This document shows, piece by piece, positions 5,238 through 11,971 of a stretch of 32,000 nt of DNA; within the stretch, counting starts at the first letter, position 1, and each line of letters opens with the position of its first letter. Under the pieces are notes generated by a model that saw nothing but the letters and a program-made list of their open reading frames with translations, was not told the DNA's origin and did no database searches. The stretch is from Candidatus Methylomirabilis oxygeniifera. Lineage in GTDB: Bacteria; Methylomirabilota; Methylomirabilia; Methylomirabilales; Methylomirabilaceae. Position numbers and translations under genes: made by a program. The DNA is taken from positions 2,220,001 through 2,252,000 of the forward strand of contig FP565575.1 of assembly GCA_000091165.1 (NCBI GenBank). Direction: 5' to 3'.

Positions 5238-6185
5238 ATGTCACTCCTGACAAGTCGTCTTACTCCCTTCATCGTTGCGGCTTGCGTTGTCGTTGGAGCA
5301 ATGGTCTGCGCCTCGACATCGGCAGAGGCGGCAAAGATCATCGCGCTGAAGAGCGCCGATGTCGATGTCTACAATGAGGCGTTGGAGGGGTTCAAGAGCG
5401 GTTCGCAGGGATCGACCGTCATCGAGTACGATATGGAGGGGGACCTCCAGAAGGGCAAAAAGTTTCTGGCGCGACTCAAATCCGGCTCGAAGCCTGACCT
5501 CATCCTTGCGGTGGGGATCTGGGCCTTACAGATTGTAGCTGAGGAGATACAAGACATCCCGGTCGTCTTTGCCATGGTGTTGAACCCGACCACAGTGATC
5601 GGGCAAGAGACTCGCAATATCACCGGCGCCAGCATGAATGTTCCGATCGAGCAACAACTTGCCTTGCTGAAAAAAATCTCACCCCAGGTCAGGAGAATCG
5701 GCGTCATTTATGATCCCTCGAAGACCGGGTGGTTGGTGAAGCAGGCTGAGCGGCTCGCCAAAGATCAGGGTATCAGGCTCGTCACTAAGGCCGTTGCCTC
5801 ACCAAAGGACTCGTTTGCCGCCCTGGATGCCATGCAGGACGAGATCGACGCCCTTTGGATTGTGCCGGATCTGACCGTTCTGGCGCCTGAATCGGTTCAG
5901 TACATGCTGCTCTTCTCCTTCAGACACAAGATCCCCGTTCTTGGCCTCTCAGAGAATCAGGCCAGAATGGGCGCCCTCCTCGGCCTCTCTTTTGAAAGCG
6001 GATGGGATATCGGGAGCCAGGCCGCTGAGTTGGCGAACGGGATCCTTTCCGGCAAGAGCATTGAAGAGATCCCGTTCACGACAGCGAGAAAGACGCGGTT
6101 GACGGTGAATCTGAAGAGTGCCGGCAAGCTCGGGGTGCATATCCCCAAGGAGATTCTCGACCGGGCCGACGTGGTGATTCGATAG
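5238..6185 (+). CDS. Periplasmic ABC_sub_bind (COG2984/PF04392) substrate-binding protein
   Basis: Signal peptide. Family-typical blocks KPDLILAVG, DIPVVFAMVLNP, NITGAS, RRIGVIYDPS, DALWIVPD, KIPVLG, RLTVNLKSAGKLGVHIPKEIL. Confidence 0.85.
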   Translation: MSLLTSRLTPFIVAACVVVGAMVCASTSAEAAKIIALKSADVDVYNEALEGFKSGSQGSTVIEYDMEGDLQKGKKFLARLKSGSKPDLILAVGIWALQIVAEEIQDIPVVFAMVLNPTTVIGQETRNITGASMNVPIEQQLALLKKISPQVRRIGVIYDPSKTGWLVKQAERLAKDQGIRLVTKAVASPKDSFAALDAMQDEIDALWIVPDLTVLAPESVQYMLLFSFRHKIPVLGLSENQARMGALLGLSFESGWDIGSQAAELANGILSGKSIEEIPFTTARKTRLTVNLKSAGKLGVHIPKEILDRADVVIR

Positions 6186-6222: not shown

Positions 6223-7938
6223 ATGAGAATCGGACAGATAACCAGATTCCGGACAAAGGTGCTGCTGTCGATCATTCCGATGATTCTGGCCCTCTGTGTC
6301 CTCTTCGGTGGGATGTCGCTGTATCAACATAACAGGTTACTGCATAGCGAGTTTGTGAAACGCGGCAAGGCTCTCGCCAGCAATCTGGCCGCCAGCGGTG
6401 AGCTCGGCGTCTTCAGTGAGGACGAGCGGCTTCTGAATGCCGCGTTACGAGGGATTACCGGTGAAGAGGATGTCGCCTACGTCTTCATTTACAACGATGC
6501 CGGGAAGCGTCTCATCGGCGGGGGCAAGGCCCTGACCCAACCCGGCCTTGGACCGACCACCGAAACGTTGAATCACGAGATCCGCGCACAAATGTTGACC
6601 GACCATCAACCTGCCAGCAGAACCGTTAAGGAGACCGGGGCGGAGTCGTTTCTGGAGTTTTACGCACCGATCGTCTCTGCCGAAGTCCGCCTGGTTGAAG
6701 AACAATACTTCGGGATGCCTCGATCGACTCCAGGTCTCAGTGAGGACCGGAGCCGTGTTATCGGGATTGCAAGGGTCGGCCTGTCGATGCGGAACATCGA
6801 TGCCCATTCAGCCTACCTGATCAAGCTCTGGGCCATTCTATCCGTCGTCTTTCTGGCCGGCGGCGCGCTCGCCGCGTATGCCCTCTCCCGAAGGATCACC
6901 CAGCCGATTACTCGGTTGACGGAGTCTACCGCGCGGATGGCCGAGGGGCAGATTGATCAGGAAATCTCAGTCGATTCTCTGGATGAGCTCGGGACGTTGG
7001 CAACAACCTACAACAAGATGGCTAAGGCATTAACGTATACCTTGGATGAACGGGCGAGAGTGGCCAGAGAGCTTCGGGACCTGAACCGGAGTCTGGAGGA
7101 TCGGATTCGCGAACGGACCTCTCAACTGGAAGAGACCAACCGAGACCTCTCGCGGGCGAGTCGTCACAAATCAGAGTTCCTGGCCAATATGAGTCATGAG
7201 TTGCGAACGCCCTTAAACGCGATTCTGGGGTTTACCGACCTGATTATTGATGGGATCTACGGTCAGGTCCCGAATGAGTTGCGCGAATCGATGGAAGACA
7301 TCCGCATTAACGGCCGACATTTACTCAGGCTCATCAACGATGTATTGGATCTCTCGAAAATTGAAGCTGGACAAATGCGATTGAATCTGGGTGAATACTC
7401 TCTTCAATCGTTGATCGACTCTGTGATCTCAGCAACGCGATCGCTGGCGACGGAAAAGCGACTGGAGCTGGTCGCCCGAGTTGAGGCGGATCTGCCGCCC
7501 GCGTTGGGCGACAGCAAGCGCATGACCCAGGTCCTGATGAACCTCGTCGGCAATGCCATTAAATTCACCCCAGGGGGCGGTTCCGTAAACGTCACGGCAA
7601 AGTCCGTTTCGAGTTCTGAGTTTCAAGTTTCCAGTTCTCAACCCGAAACCCGAAACCCGAAACCCGAAACACCGACATCACCAGATTTCATAGAAATTTC
7701 GGTCGCGGATACGGGAATCGGTATTCCTGCCGAAGAGCTAAAAAGTATTTTCGGTGAATTTCGCCAAGTTGACAGCTCCATCACCAGAGAATACGGCGGA
7801 AGCGGTCTTGGTCTCAGCATCGCGAAGCGACTGGTTGAGATGCATAGAGGGTCTATCTGGGCGGACAGTCAGGTTGGAAGGGGATCAACTTTCTACGTCC
7901 GCATTCCGCTCCGGACTCAGTGGGAGGGGAGCCTGTGA
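6223..7938 (+). CDS. Sensor histidine kinase (2 TM, periplasmic domain, HAMP, HisKA, HATPase_c)
   Basis: H-box SHELRTPLNAILGF, N-box MNLVGNAIKFT, G1 DTGIGI, G2 GGSGLGLSI. HAMP segment RRITQPITRLTESTARMAEGQ. Confidence 0.9.
   Translation: MRIGQITRFRTKVLLSIIPMILALCVLFGGMSLYQHNRLLHSEFVKRGKALASNLAASGELGVFSEDERLLNAALRGITGEEDVAYVFIYNDAGKRLIGGGKALTQPGLGPTTETLNHEIRAQMLTDHQPASRTVKETGAESFLEFYAPIVSAEVRLVEEQYFGMPRSTPGLSEDRSRVIGIARVGLSMRNIDAHSAYLIKLWAILSVVFLAGGALAAYALSRRITQPITRLTESTARMAEGQIDQEISVDSLDELGTLATTYNKMAKALTYTLDERARVARELRDLNRSLEDRIRERTSQLEETNRDLSRASRHKSEFLANMSHELRTPLNAILGFTDLIIDGIYGQVPNELRESMEDIRINGRHLLRLINDVLDLSKIEAGQMRLNLGEYSLQSLIDSVISATRSLATEKRLELVARVEADLPPALGDSKRMTQVLMNLVGNAIKFTPGGGSVNVTAKSVSSSEFQVSSSQPETRNPKPETPTSPDFIEISVADTGIGIPAEELKSIFGEFRQVDSSITREYGGSGLGLSIAKRLVEMHRGSIWADSQVGRGSTFYVRIPLRTQWEGSL
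7606..7670. repeat. Heptamer-periodic inverted array inside the kinase CDS: GTTTCNN-like units followed by (AACCCGA)x4
   Basis: Read directly: GTTTCGA GTTCTGA GTTTCAA GTTTCCA GTTCTCA, then AACCCGA x4 at 7640-7667. GTTTC is the reverse complement of GAAAC in the second arm. Confidence 0.85.
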
Positions 7939-8306
7939 GCGGGAATCTGATCTTGCATGTTGAGGATAACCAATACAATCGGAAGATTATCAGGGACCTT
8001 CTCTCCAAACACAACTATGAGATCATGGAGGCTCATAATGGGGAGGCCGCGCTCGACGCGCTGGCACGCCGGCGACCTGACCTCATCTTGATGGATATTC
8101 AGTTGCCGAAGCTTTCCGGCCTTGAAGTTACTCGGAGAATCAGGGCCGATCCCTCACTCGCCCAGATCCCGATCATCGCCATCACCTCATTTGCCCTGAG
8201 TGGCGATGAGCGCACAGCCTTTGAGGCGGGTTGCAGCGCCTATATCGCAAAGCCTTTCAGGCCGCGAGATCTCCTGGAGATGATCCAACGCTTCTTGGGT
8301 CCGTAA
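7935..8306 (+). CDS. Single-domain CheY-like response regulator receiver
   Basis: ILHVEDN, PDLILMDIQLPKLSG, IPIIAITS, YIAKP. The GTG at 7935 overlaps the kinase stop as GTGA, which suggests translational coupling. Confidence 0.85.
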   Translation: MSGNLILHVEDNQYNRKIIRDLLSKHNYEIMEAHNGEAALDALARRRPDLILMDIQLPKLSGLEVTRRIRADPSLAQIPIIAITSFALSGDERTAFEAGCSAYIAKPFRPRDLLEMIQRFLGP

Positions 8307-8390: not shown

Positions 8391-9776
8391 ATGGACACGT
8401 ATCGAACGAAAGTGCTGATCGTTGACGATGATCCATCGGCCAGGAAGATCCTTCAGGGCCGGCTGCGGATTATGAACGTTCAGGCGCTTATTGCATCCAG
8501 CGGCTCTGAGGCGCTCGAACAGATCCGTCGGGAGACACCCGGGGTTGTCCTGCTGGACCTGCAGATGCCGAAGATGTCAGGCATTGACGTTCTCAGGTCG
8601 TTGAAGCGCGAAGGACTGGAACCGACCGTGATTGTTGTGACCGCGCACGCAACCGTCGAAGCCGCTGTCGAGGCAATGAAGGAGGGTGCATACGACTTTA
8701 TCACCAAACCTGTTGATTCACAACATCTGGAGATCGTCCTGGGAAAGGCATTCGAGCGCGAGTCGTTGCGGGCGCAAAGTCGCTGCTTGCAGACGGAAAT
8801 GGCGGATCGCCTGGTCCAGGTTATAGCGGACAACCCAATCATGAAACAGTTGCTGCAGCTCGCCCGTCGCGCCGCCGACAGCAATTCAACCATCCTGCTC
8901 CTGGGAGAGAGCGGGACCGGAAAAGAGGTCTTGGCCAGAAGCATTCACCAGTGGAGTTCTCGGGCACACTATCCATTCACTGTGGTGAATTGCGTGGCCA
9001 TTCCGGAGCAGTTACTGGAAAGCGAGCTGTTTGGTCATGAACGAGGGGCCTTCACTGGCGCGCATCAGCTCAAAAGAGGCAGGTTCGAGATTGCGGAGCA
9101 CGGTACGGTCTTTCTCGACGAAATCGGGGAGGTCCCGGCCGGTATTCAGACAAAACTCCTCCGAGTGTTGCAACACCACGAGTTTGAGCGAGTTGGGGGA
9201 ACCCGTGCGATCAAGGCGGACATCCGCGTGATTGCCGCCACCAACAGCGACCTCGAACGGGCTGTACAAGAGGGCCGCTTCCGGGAAGACCTCTACTATC
9301 GACTAAACGTCGTCAGTATCAAGCTGCCACCGTTAAGGGAGCGAAAAGAGGATATTCCTGCACTGGTCGACTACTTCCTGAGAAAGTACGCAGGCGAGCT
9401 GAAAAAACCTTTGAAGCGACTTGCCCTCGGTACGATGGATGACTTGATGGCCTATCATTGGCCGGGAAACGTGCGCGAGCTGGAGAACGTTGTTGAGCGA
9501 GCTATGGTCTTGAGTATAGGGGATCAGATCGGCCAGGAGGATCTGCCGCTCCAGGTCACCACGGGGCTACGCCGTGAGTCGTTCAGAGCAAAAGAGTTCC
9601 ACGAGGCCGTCACGGAGTTCAAGCGGTGGGTGATTCATGATGCGCTCAAGCGTTCGCAGGGCAATCAGACCAAGGCGGCGGAGCTTCTCGGACTTCAGCG
9701 CACCTATCTCGCTAAGCTGATCCGGCTACTGGAGATCAAATCGGATGCAAATCCCACCGAGAAGAACCGCCTTTGA
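8391..9776 (+). CDS. Sigma-54-dependent Fis-family response regulator (NtrC/LuxO/GlrR class enhancer-binding protein)
   Basis: Receiver domain (VLLDLQMPKMSG). AAA+ Walker A GESGTGKE. GAFTGA sigma-54 contact motif. C-terminal Fis-type HTH QTKAAELLGLQRTYLAKLI. GGAGGAG SD. Confidence 0.92.
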   Translation: MDTYRTKVLIVDDDPSARKILQGRLRIMNVQALIASSGSEALEQIRRETPGVVLLDLQMPKMSGIDVLRSLKREGLEPTVIVVTAHATVEAAVEAMKEGAYDFITKPVDSQHLEIVLGKAFERESLRAQSRCLQTEMADRLVQVIADNPIMKQLLQLARRAADSNSTILLLGESGTGKEVLARSIHQWSSRAHYPFTVVNCVAIPEQLLESELFGHERGAFTGAHQLKRGRFEIAEHGTVFLDEIGEVPAGIQTKLLRVLQHHEFERVGGTRAIKADIRVIAATNSDLERAVQEGRFREDLYYRLNVVSIKLPPLRERKEDIPALVDYFLRKYAGELKKPLKRLALGTMDDLMAYHWPGNVRELENVVERAMVLSIGDQIGQEDLPLQVTTGLRRESFRAKEFHEAVTEFKRWVIHDALKRSQGNQTKAAELLGLQRTYLAKLIRLLEIKSDANPTEKNRL

Positions 9777-9967
9777 TGCAGCGATGAGATCGCATTCCGT
9801 GTATCGCTTTCGATCCTATGTTGTATTCTATTAGGTACTATCCTCTGACGTATCGCTTGAGCCGGTCAGATTTTATCCTTCCGTCAAAATGGTCTTTATG
9901 CAAATAAATCAATATGTTTGCCTCTTACATTGTGCCACGCGAACGGTTGAGCCATCGAGGGATGATG

Positions 9968-9983
9968 TGGCACGCTTGTTGCT
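9968..9983 (+). promoter_or_regulatory. Sigma-54 (-24/-12) promoter TGGCACG-CTTG-TTGCT
   Basis: Exact match to the TGGCACG-N4-TTGCW core (GG at 9969-9970, GC at 9981-9982). It lies 192 nt downstream of the EBP gene. An IHF-like AATCAATATGTTT sits at 9907-9919. Confidence 0.6.
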
Positions 9984-9993
9984 TACTCTCTAT

Positions 9994-10170
9994 GGTAGGG
10001 TCGTTTGCTTGGCGACCGTTTCTAGAACTCACGTCGTGTCCAAGGGGCTATAAAGAGGAGAGCCCATCCGCTACCCCCCGGAGGGCTCTCCTCTCGTACC
10101 CCACCTTCTCAGCTATTCATCTATTATTACCCCCCTCCATAGATCGGCCCGACGGTCGGGTTCTTGCTCT
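9994..10170 (+). ncRNA. Candidate sigma-54-dependent small RNA (hypothetical; ends not determined)
   Basis: Lies downstream of the -24/-12 element. Contains a hairpin GGTCG-N9-CGACC (9999-10017). Contains a perfect 12-bp stem AGAGGAGAGCCC/GGGCTCTCCTCT (10054-10065 / 10083-10094) with a C6 loop. Single-stranded C-rich runs: ACCCCACC at 10098-10105 and CCCCCCTCC at 10130-10138. A weak terminator-like CCCGA-CGG-TCGGG + TTCTTGCTCT sits at 10148-10170. Confidence 0.3.
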
Positions 10171-10514
10171 ACTGACCTGAGTGAGCGCAGATATCTTCCA
10201 AGAAAATGGCCCTCGTGACTCCCCCCATCGTATTCCAACCGACTCAGAGCTTCCTCATTCTTTCTTGACTCCCGTGACTCAGTTTGTCTAAAGTTCATAT
10301 GCACTAACTGATTGATTTAATTAGGGACAATCATGTTCAGGTGTGCGGTGAGCGCAGGCTGTCATTTCCGATTAAACGAATGCGCCGACCGCCGAGTCAT
10401 AAGTAGCAAGTGAGCGCATAACTTGACAAGTCGGAGCAGTTGTTCGGCCGCTGCAATGTAACAACAGCCCTTGTATGATTCGAGTATATAGAACATCGCC
10501 TATGAGGGGAAAAT

Positions 10515-10784
10515 ATGGCTACAATTATCGAGTATACTGACCAAAAAAGGCCGGCTAATCATTATCCAAAGCGGATTGTCTCGCCCCTTTCGTCGGGCCC
10601 ATGCTGTTGCTCTAAAATGGAGCAGATCGGCGTGGAACAGCACGAAGAAGCCTGGAGCTTCATCTATAAGCGCTGTAAGCAGTGCGGGTTTGCCGTACGT
10701 CACGTAACGGCTCGAACCCTGCAACTCCCAACGAAGACAAGTTCTCGATTCGAACACCGGGAGTTAATCGGCTCCCACACCTAA
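10515..10784 (+). CDS. Hypothetical small Cys-rich protein (possible zinc-ribbon), orphan in an A/T-rich gap
   Basis: GAGGGG SD 5 nt before the ATG. Cys pattern GPCCCS...CKQCGF. I recognise no family. Confidence 0.4.
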   Translation: MATIIEYTDQKRPANHYPKRIVSPLSSGPCCCSKMEQIGVEQHEEAWSFIYKRCKQCGFAVRHVTARTLQLPTKTSSRFEHRELIGSHT

Positions 10785-11008
10785 AACGACTCAACACTCA
10801 CTCTCTGCATTCTGCTCCACCTGTGCTATACTTGATTGTCACGCAAAACACCGCACCATAGGGACCCGGTCCTACAGACTTCCGTTCACCCTTCGACGGG
10901 CCCAGGGCAAACGGTATGGGCATTGAAAAGAAGGACGTGTTCCCGTTCGTGGTGAGCCGGTCGAACCACGGCAGATGGCTTGCGGGGGAGACACATAGGA
11001 GTTGAGAG

Positions 11009-11971
11009 ATGAACGTCGGCGGTCTTGTTGAAGATATTGAGGTGAGCGCCCTGCTTGATCTCGAAGAAGAGATCAAGCAGCTGAAAAAAGCGTTGCATGC
11101 GGTGGTGTTAGCACACTACTACCAGGAGTCTGAAATTCAGGATGTGGCCGATTTCGTCGGCGACAGTCTGCAACTAGCCCAACAGGCCGCAAAAACGAGC
11201 GCTGAGGTGATTGTTTTTGCCGGCGTTCACTTTATGGCGGAGACGGCGAAGATCCTGAATCCCTCGAAGCAGGTGCTGCTCCCCGATTTGGCGGCCGGTT
11301 GTTCGCTGGCAGAAGGGTGCCCGGCGCCTCTCTTCAGACGCTTCAAAGAAAAATATCCGGATCACATCGTGATCAGCTACATTAATTGCAGTGCCGAGGT
11401 CAAGGCGATGAGCGATATCATCTGCACCTCGAGCAACGCCGAAAAGCTCATCAACCAGATCCCGAAAGAGCAGCCAATCCTTTTTGCGCCCGATCAGAAC
11501 CTGGGTCGCTACCTTATCAAAAAGACCGGCCGTGATCTGACGCTGTGGCCCGGCACCTGTACCGTACACGAGACGTTCTCTGAAAAGAAGCTTGTGCAGT
11601 TGATGCTGTACTATCCTCACGCCAAGGTGCTTGCGCATCCTGAGTGCGAAGCCGGCGTGCTTCAGCATGCCGACTACATCGGCTCAACAAGCGGACTGCT
11701 GGGTTATGTCAAGCAAAGTACGGATACCGAATTCATTATTGCGACCGAGCCCGGCATCATTCATCAGATGGAGAAGGCCTGCCGGGACAAGACGTTTATC
11801 CCGGCCCCACCGGACGGAGATTGCGCCTGCAACCAGTGCCCCCACATGCGGCTTAACACTCTGGAGAAACTGTACCTGTGCATGAAACACCGGGCGCCGG
11901 AAATTACGCTTGATGAAGAGCTGCGGCTTCTTGCGTTACGTCCGATCCAGCGTATGCTGGAGATGAGCTAG
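11009..11971 (+). CDS. nadA: Quinolinate synthase
   Basis: [31 protein letters not shown], the three-domain repeat pattern, and the Fe-S Cys residues. AGGAG SD. Confidence 0.93.

Follow-up and report, generated by a model that had tools for sequence, protein, structure and literature searches.

A gap of 1.2 kb separates a signalling operon of Candidatus Methylomirabilis oxygeniifera from a block formed by an 89-aa open reading frame (ORF) and the nad genes, and within this gap, behind the gene of an NtrC-family regulator, lies a sequence that reads as a sigma-54 promoter. The question raised by the locus is what such a promoter would transcribe, i.e. the leader of the downstream genes, the relic of a gene that has been lost, or an RNA that acts as such. 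The comparison of orthologous loci described here makes it, in our judgement, fairly probable that the promoter heads a small sigma-54-dependent transcription unit of the upstream two-component system, and that the product of this unit, for which the gap is the site, is a functional, regulatory RNA. The organism belongs to NC10, the phylum of the nitrite-dependent methane oxidisers, in which no regulatory RNA has been described, and full-text literature searches returned nothing relevant that links Methylomirabilis to small RNAs or to sigma-54 regulation. If functional, the RNA would provide a first handle on post-transcriptional control in NC10, would constitute the output of an otherwise uncharacterised two-component system, and would offer an unusually clean natural series that leads from a small-protein mRNA to a non-coding RNA. 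The window, to which all coordinates refer (Table 1), is the whole stretch of 32,000 nucleotides that was analysed; L numbers denote individual loci.

Orthologous loci with enough downstream DNA were gathered from species-representative genomes, JGI metagenomes and exact-protein look-ups: 29 loci came from the genus Methylomirabilis, in which the sigma-54 enhancer-binding response regulator (EBP) is 73-98% identical, and a further six belong to NC10 lineages at a greater distance (58-61% and 48%). The EBP orthologues form 68 clusters of 73-98% identity, followed by a gap down to 58% or less; the nearest are 98% (Logan contigs), 85% (M. lanthanidiphila) and 78% identical (a M. oxyfera-type MAG). 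Two sets recur below, namely an ORF-bearing set of 12 loci, in which a 49-codon ORF follows the promoter, and an ORF-less set of 10 distinct sequences that includes the window. Selection was measured as the mean pairwise identity inside the ORF-less clade, and the 4-fold degenerate sites of the adjacent EBP gene served as the neutral yardstick.

The EBP, which is the presumed activator, carries the Pfam domains Response_reg, Sigma54_activat, AAA_lid_14 and HTH_8, and it scores under the cut-off of every one of the named NCBIfam equivalogs. In the ORF-less clade the ribosome-binding site of its gene is GGAGGAGAG.

Table 1. Features of the locus, in window coordinates, from the signalling unit to the nad block
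Feature	Position	Strand	Remarks
ABC_sub_bind periplasmic protein	5238-6185		First gene of signalling unit
HAMP histidine kinase	6223-7938		Signalling unit
Single-domain response regulator	7920-8306		Signalling unit
NtrC-family sigma-54 enhancer-binding response regulator (EBP), presumed activator	8391..9776	+	Last gene of signalling unit
Candidate upstream activator sites	9801..9840	+	About 130-165 nt before promoter
GTATC-N6-GATCC dyad	9801-9816	+	Candidate activator site
TGTATT-N6-GGTACT dyad	9822-9840	+	Candidate activator site
A/T-rich IHF-like element AATCAATATGTTT	9907..9919	+	Between upstream sites and promoter
Sigma-54 promoter TGGCAC-GCTTG-TTGCT (TGGCACGCTTGTTGCT)	9968..9983	+	-24 GG at 9969-9970, -12 GC at 9981-9982
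H1, 7-bp 5' hairpin GGUCGUU / GGCGACC	9999..10017	+	Folds in 9/10 ORF-less sequences; predicted by alifold
Linker …ACGUCGUGUCCAA	10018..10043	+	Corresponds by homology to codons 39-48 of the relatives' 49-aa ORF; no usable ORF left
H2, extended hairpin	10044..10102	+	Basal GGGG/CCCC below 12 bp, then a bulged A and 4 bp; apical loop of 8 nt, CUACCCCC
C/U-rich, G-poor stretch including CCCCCCTCC (10130-10138)	10103..10147	+	Composition kept, sequence poorly conserved
3' domain: short hairpin CCCGA/UCGGG (10148-10160), then tail GUUCUUGCUCUACUGACCUGA	10148..10180	+	Likely 3' boundary of the unit
Sigma-70-like promoter TTGACT-N18-TAAAGT with palindromic operator	10265..10294	+	From scan; start of next transcription unit
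89-aa Cys-rich ORF	10515-10784		Followed by nadA-nadC-nadB; same strand as sigma-54 promoter

The promoter fits TGGCAC-N5-TTGCW exactly and is the sole exact match on both strands of the 32-kb window, where shuffled sequences give an expectation of 0.05. It is located 192 nt past the EBP stop codon (9776). None of the 29 genus loci lacks it, the spacing to the EBP stop being 184-193 nt where this was measured, and the distant NC10 loci L004 and L091-L095 have it as well; in L109 the -12 element reads ATGC. Pairwise identity of the promoter within the ORF-less clade amounts to 0.98. Of the upstream dyads, the one at 9822-9840 takes the form GTAC-N8-GTAC in relatives and is a perfect 16-bp palindrome in L109; the dyad motif is kept in 21 of the 21 Methylomirabilis-genus sequences inspected, with a pairwise identity of 0.84 in the ORF-less clade versus 0.58 at neutral sites, and would be where the EBP binds. 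The A/T-rich element between the dyads and the promoter is a near match to WATCAANNNNTTR, of which AAATCAATA is kept in most relatives, and makes a weak candidate for an IHF site. Judged by sequence and spacing, dyads, IHF-like element and promoter together have the classical UAS / bend / -24/-12 layout. As every orthologous locus has the promoter, at a constant spacing from the EBP gene and preceded by a conserved palindrome, it is real in the comparative sense, and from the usual promoter spacing the start site is predicted at about 9993 +/- 2. An earlier, sequence-only reading of this DNA had taken as its starting point a near-consensus sigma-54 promoter 192 nt downstream of a sigma-54 EBP gene and followed by about 520 nt without a convincing coding sequence, and all of this is borne out: the match is exact and unique, the upstream gene has the Response_reg, Sigma54_activat and HTH_8 domains, and no conserved coding sequence follows the promoter before 10515, nor is a gene called in the gap in any locus.

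The predicted transcript (9994-10180, 187 nt) folds with an MFE z-score of -3.3, and 0 of 200 shuffles fold as well. Its principal structure, hairpin H2, contains the 12-bp stem extendable by 4 bp that had been noticed at the outset (10054-10065/10083-10094 and 10067-10070/10079-10082, respectively), with A10066 bulged between the two parts and the 8-nt loop at 10071-10078. Single-sequence folding returns the same 20-22-bp H2 stem in every species, at -35 to -45 kcal/mol. A covariance model (R1) built from ten sequences matches the plus strand of 22 distinct genus loci once each, with 65-106 bits; on the plus strand of 28 control loci it matches nothing, and the window has no further copy. The loop motif CCG-N2-3-C5-6-GG has a single occurrence in every genus locus, invariably 3' of the promoter. 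The check on homologous loci that the sequence-only reading had proposed for promoter and hairpin thus recovers the promoter in 29/29 genus loci and H2 in 22/22 distinct ones, with covariation. Standard pairs make up 96.7% of the cells over 16 pairs, and double changes occur at 9 of these 16, counted on an alignment that was fitted to the covariance model and therefore leans towards the structure; 0 of 500 shuffles reach the observed covariation score, and slid partners give 43-54% pairing. The arms vary among species (GAGGAGAGCC, GGAGGGGGACC, GGAUGGGGGCC, GCGGAGAGCUC etc.), the 3' arm matching each, whereas hardly any variation is seen in the inner 4 bp and the loop; in the ORF-less clade identity is 0.80 for H2 and 0.88 for the inner stem plus loop. 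By these comparative measures H2 is a selected, conserved RNA structure with covariation, and the compensated pairing and near-invariant loop, taken together, exceed the needs of a terminator or a stabiliser stem.

Two other identities of H2 were considered and rejected. As an intrinsic terminator it lacks the U-run, the G+C-rich stem being followed by CGUACCCCACCUUCUC, and the terminator scan does not call it; as an operator palindrome at the DNA level its arms should stay fixed instead of covarying, and its invariant centre is asymmetric. The 5' arm of H2 is also a strong Shine-Dalgarno (SD) look-alike (10053-10062 in the window; e.g. 4961-4975 in L001), which reads AAGGAGG directly past the stop codon in the ORF-bearing species and AGAGGAGAG in the window, and which pairs with the anti-SD-like 3' arm.

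The other parts of the transcript are preserved to different extents. H1 is paired in 87% of the cells, versus 20-69% with slid partners, its covariation is not better than that of shuffles, and it is a plausible but weakly supported 5' hairpin; an alternative helix H1b (GCGAC/GTCGC), predicted by alifold on the all-species alignment, was set aside, as compensatory changes are lacking and coding constraint confounds the signal. The linker has an identity of 0.78 in the ORF-less clade. In the C/U-rich stretch identity falls to 0.49, and the C:G ratio is 1.4-3.4 in 20 of 20 species. The 3' domain ends in a 21-nt tail (GUUCUYGCUCUGCUGACCUGA) whose identity in the ORF-less clade is 0.80, dropping to 0.31 immediately past it; alifold gives an alternative stem for this domain, GGGUU/UGACC. 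The weak terminator-like hairpin that the sequence-only reading had pointed out does exist, at 10144-10159 with the tail GTTCTTGCTC, but 1.2 such sites are expected by chance in the scan, and this hairpin (H3) was set aside as a conserved element, its register in the window being kept only in the three closest relatives. Scanning 9993-10515 revealed no canonical intrinsic terminator. On the pattern of conservation, 10148-10180 likely marks the predicted 3' boundary of the transcript. Rfam, with Qrr, GlmY/GlmZ, CrcZ, NrsZ and RsaE among the families considered, gave 0 matches over the whole window at gathering thresholds, and at E <= 10 over 9700-11100 it gave only chance microRNA-like hairpin matches with E >= 1.

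The origin of the unit becomes apparent from the relatives. In 12 of them the promoter is followed by a leader of about 75 nt, an SD (GAGG) 8-10 nt before an ATG or GTG, and a 49-codon ORF of which the stop codon lies inside the 5' arm of H2 (e.g. L001 4815-4964, L003 5680-5829, and 10 other loci). The encoded peptide, (M/V)YPTAIAVLLLFPWSLVxIAAIxCLRQRGGRRxAQPATVSPTRSSRPQG, consists of one hydrophobic helix and a basic, polar tail, with an invariant FPWSL motif and an ATVSPTRSSRP tail. Its length, frame (with a 3-nt insertion in L110) and residues are kept, and the 49-aa ORF is therefore a real, unannotated gene; none of the six ORF-bearing loci with listed gene calls (L105-L110) has it called, and searches of a 5.8-billion-protein collection, of Pfam and of NCBIfam brought up no homologue of the peptide. 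Since the synonymous sites of codons 37-47, the homologue of the linker, are nearly invariant in the ORF-bearing species, the comparison suggests that constraint at the RNA level predates the loss of the ORF.

That loss can be followed in steps. SD and start codon are gone and the frame is still open in L083 and L099 (M. lanthanidiphila type), the frame is disrupted in L086, L098, L101 and L111, the middle of the ORF is deleted in L082, and nearly the whole ORF is deleted in the window, L081 and L096, where about 14 last codons' worth of ORF sequence is left between the start site and H2; concurrently, the distance from promoter to loop shrinks from 243-261 via 162-172 and 129 to 98-102 nt. 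In a neighbour-joining tree of the EBP the 10 ORF-less sequences form one clade nested among ORF-bearing lineages, and the ORF was therefore lost once and decayed afterwards. The window, L081 and L096 retain no usable ORF, in agreement with the claim of the sequence-only reading that the transcript does not code for protein in this genome; a translated small ORF occurs only in the 12 relatives, so that dual function does not apply to the window element itself. The frame at 9914-10180/9992-10180 was rejected as a gene, being interrupted in L081 and having no family match. By its homology, the RNA is the surviving 3' part of a small-protein mRNA. In L083 (4400-4500) GGGTCGTT occurs twice as a direct repeat, at former codons 14-16 and 32-34, and of these two the window (9997-10017) retains one, a pattern that points to an origin of the large deletion between the GGGTCGTT direct repeats.

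What lies 3' of the unit varies between loci: a TetR-family gene, nadA behind the 89-aa ORF, remains of transposases next to convergent genes, or the gene of a guanylate cyclase. The unit itself is constant at all loci despite these varying neighbours and, judged from this distribution, travels with the activator gene and not with the downstream genes. The sigma-70-like promoter with its operator-like palindrome (10265-10413) is kept in relatives and there precedes a TetR-family gene of 194-201 aa. The TetR coding sequence is absent in the window, L096 and L081, where only ATGT… and a 26-codon unrelated frame are present and tblastn gives no match; on this comparison the TetR gene served by the promoter at 10265-10294 has been lost from this genome by deletion. 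The 89-aa Cys-rich ORF has a weak match to RNHCP/zinc-ribbon (E = 0.0011, below cut-off) and recurs with unchanged length in L096, L101, L110 and L111, either ahead of nadA or behind TetR.

Within the ORF-less clade, the identities of the promoter, H2, the linker and the tail (0.98, 0.80, 0.78 and 0.80) compare with 0.58 at the 4-fold degenerate sites of the EBP gene and 0.31-0.61 in other spacer segments. By this measure purifying selection has kept these four parts well beyond the loss of the ORF, a retention seen after one phylogenetic event and in one clade, comprising 10 distinct sequences, of which two (L083 and L099) still have an open, SD-less frame. As these parts were kept after the ORF had gone, the RNA itself is most likely functional. 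The same values weigh on a reading that we consider unlikely, namely that promoter and hairpin are the non-functional relic of a decaying small-protein gene, the hairpin having been its terminator or mRNA stabiliser and the present RNA being idle. The ORF is indeed clearly ancestral and decays in the window clade with deletions of different extent, the neighbouring TetR gene was deleted in the window lineage as well, so that the region is eroding, and no target was found in the 32-kb window. Nevertheless, at least three independent deletion variants removed the body of the ORF yet stopped short of promoter, H2, linker and tail, and the pairing of H2 is upheld by compensatory changes around a near-invariant loop that a mere terminator does not need. 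Quite improbable, in our view, is a leader or read-through, in which the sigma-54 promoter would serve the 89-aa ORF (10515-10784) and nadA-nadC-nadB and the structured RNA would be their 5' leader or attenuator. These genes share the strand of the promoter, no canonical terminator intervenes between 9993 and 10515, and H2 has no U-tract, but the downstream genes differ between loci, L099 (M. lanthanidiphila-type) having a transposase fragment and convergent genes and the ORF-bearing clade a guanylate cyclase about 700 nt away; moreover, in the window clade a separate, conserved sigma-70-like promoter with operator stands between the RNA and the downstream genes, and identity collapses to 0.31 directly past the tail. 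The conserved remnant, the varied neighbours and the intervening sigma-70-like promoter together argue against neutral relic and leader alike.

A further alternative accepts a functional RNA and dispenses with anti-SD pairing: the C-rich stretch behind H2 would be a Rho-loading (rut-like) region that ends an untranslated transcript, and H2 a protein-binding or stability element that, for instance, titrates an RNA-binding protein. It is in keeping with the C:G ratio of 1.4-3.4 that is maintained in 20/20 species where the sequence is not (identity 0.49), with the ACCCCA run being paired, with the best anti-SD-like sequence (CUCUCCUCU) being locked in the H2 stem, and with the failure to find SD-specific pairing; by its composition, rich in C and poor in G, the stretch fits Rho loading no less well than an anti-SD role. 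On the other hand, the invariant loop CUACCCCC is exposed and is the type of element that known sRNAs pair with, and NrsZ acts via a conserved loop motif (PMC4253122), and as a whole we rate this alternative as rather unlikely.

The sequence-only reading had been more specific on the mechanism, proposing that two unpaired C-runs, complementary to the SD sequences of genes in the window, make this an anti-SD-type RNA, and here it fared less well. The first run, ACCCCACC, is not unpaired, as CCCC at 10099-10102 pairs with GGGG at 10044-10047 in the MFE structure and in both alifold consensus structures. The second, CCCCCCTCC, sits in the loop of AUCUAU/AUAGAU in the window MFE and is part of the least conserved portion of the RNA (identity 0.49). 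Specific or conserved pairing with the SD sequences of window genes was not found, and the anti-SD mechanism has no support beyond composition. A search for exact 8-mer complementarity over the 32-kb window produced two matches versus about one expected; one of them, to the start codon of the EBP gene, was rejected as a target, being at chance level and not kept even in the 98%-identical relative. RNAduplex runs against 26 translation-initiation regions gave meaningless long duplexes and were discarded.

For the preferred reading, a regulatory RNA of the two-component system, a consistent course of events can be proposed, in which activation by the EBP, the transcript ends and any regulatory activity are what we infer from conservation. 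The phosphorylated NtrC-type activator would bind the GTAC-containing dyads at 9801-9840 and turn on sigma-54 RNA polymerase at 9968-9983, so that a short RNA would begin near 9993. Ancestrally, and to this day in 12 sister lineages, the RNA serves as mRNA for a membrane peptide of 49 aa with a single helix, and this mRNA closes with a highly stable hairpin whose apical loop is rich in C. The lineage to which the window belongs lost the ribosome-binding site of the peptide gene and afterwards most of the gene itself, so that a predicted RNA of about 110-190 nt is left, made up of the 5' hairpin, the conserved linker, H2 and the conserved tail. As a regulatory RNA it might pair with G-rich RNA or bind a protein via the invariant loop CUACCCCC, possibly also via linker or tail; regulatory activity through this loop, be it pairing or protein binding, is our best guess by analogy. 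A more far-reaching version, which we put forward tentatively and would not yet bet on, holds that the riboregulator began as a dual-function RNA and in most species still is one, combining the 49-aa membrane peptide with a regulatory 3' hairpin; the window clade would then record the transition from mRNA to pure sRNA through loss of the SD, disruption of the frame and deletion between the GGGTCGTT repeats, the GAF domain of the kinase having been lost in the same clade.

Concerning this kinase, it measures about 732-746 aa and has a GAF domain in all ORF-bearing loci compared (L105-L110), and 556-571 aa without GAF in all ORF-less loci (window, L096-L104). The loss of the 49-aa peptide gene coincides with that of the GAF domain, in one clade and as a single event, a hint of a possible action of the peptide on the kinase, comparable to that of MgrB.

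Small-RNA genes next to genes of their regulators are known from other bacteria: crcZ adjoins cbrB, qrr1 adjoins luxO, and glmY adjoins glrK/glrR. With Qrr (LuxO) and GlmY (GlrR) the present unit shares a sigma-54 promoter, the vicinity of an EBP gene and a predicted product that is short, structured and non-coding; the covariance models of both families fail to match it, and architecture, phylum and origin differ. RsaE/RoxS of Firmicutes are C-rich-motif sRNAs, in which exposed C-runs can pair with G-rich ribosome-binding sites. The RNA described here likewise has exposed C-runs that could do so, but in contrast to RsaE/RoxS only the C-run of the H2 loop is conserved, Rfam gives no match and no SD-type target was found in the window.

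Two characterised systems resemble the unit more closely in particular respects. The sequence-only reading had invoked activator-adjacent sigma-54 sRNAs as a precedent, aptly so, as NrsZ of Pseudomonas aeruginosa is an RpoN/NtrC-dependent sRNA encoded in the ntrC-PA5126 spacer (PMC4253122). In both cases the (candidate) sRNA gene lies directly 3' of, and co-directional with, the gene for an NtrC-family activator, behind a TGGCAC-N5-TTGC-type promoter, and the function of NrsZ rests on a conserved hairpin-loop motif (PMC4253122), to which the conserved loop found here may correspond in function by analogy. There is, however, no similarity to NrsZ in sequence or in Rfam; NrsZ is modular, with repeated stem-loops, and is processed, whereas here a single hairpin dominates, and the RNA described here, from phylum NC10, descends from a peptide-coding mRNA. 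For that descent SgrS offers a parallel: in Y. pestis it is 5'-truncated and without sgrT, the 3' regulatory part having been kept (PMC2760806). As with SgrS/SgrT, a small-protein RNA appears to have lost its 5' coding part in some lineages and to have kept its conserved 3' part, with a dedicated transcription factor encoded in the vicinity. The differences are that base pairing has been demonstrated for SgrS and is inferred here, that SgrS is sigma-70/SgrR dependent and not a sigma-54 unit, and that the SgrS ORF is located upstream of the pairing region, whereas here the conserved RNA overlaps the last codons and the stop of the ORF. The locus therefore presents a candidate for a new sigma-54-associated, activator-adjacent small RNA, analogous to NrsZ and to the SgrS of Yersinia.

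In more distant NC10 lineages, where the EBP is 58-61% identical, the equivalent promoter is associated with a different small gene. In L004 (5703-6007), L091, L092 and L093 it drives a small exported protein of about 74 aa (MKRILGILGIV…, with a C-terminal Cys), the gene of which sits behind a conserved leader hairpin, and the upstream palindrome of these loci differs as well, reading TGGATGC-N4-GCATCCA.
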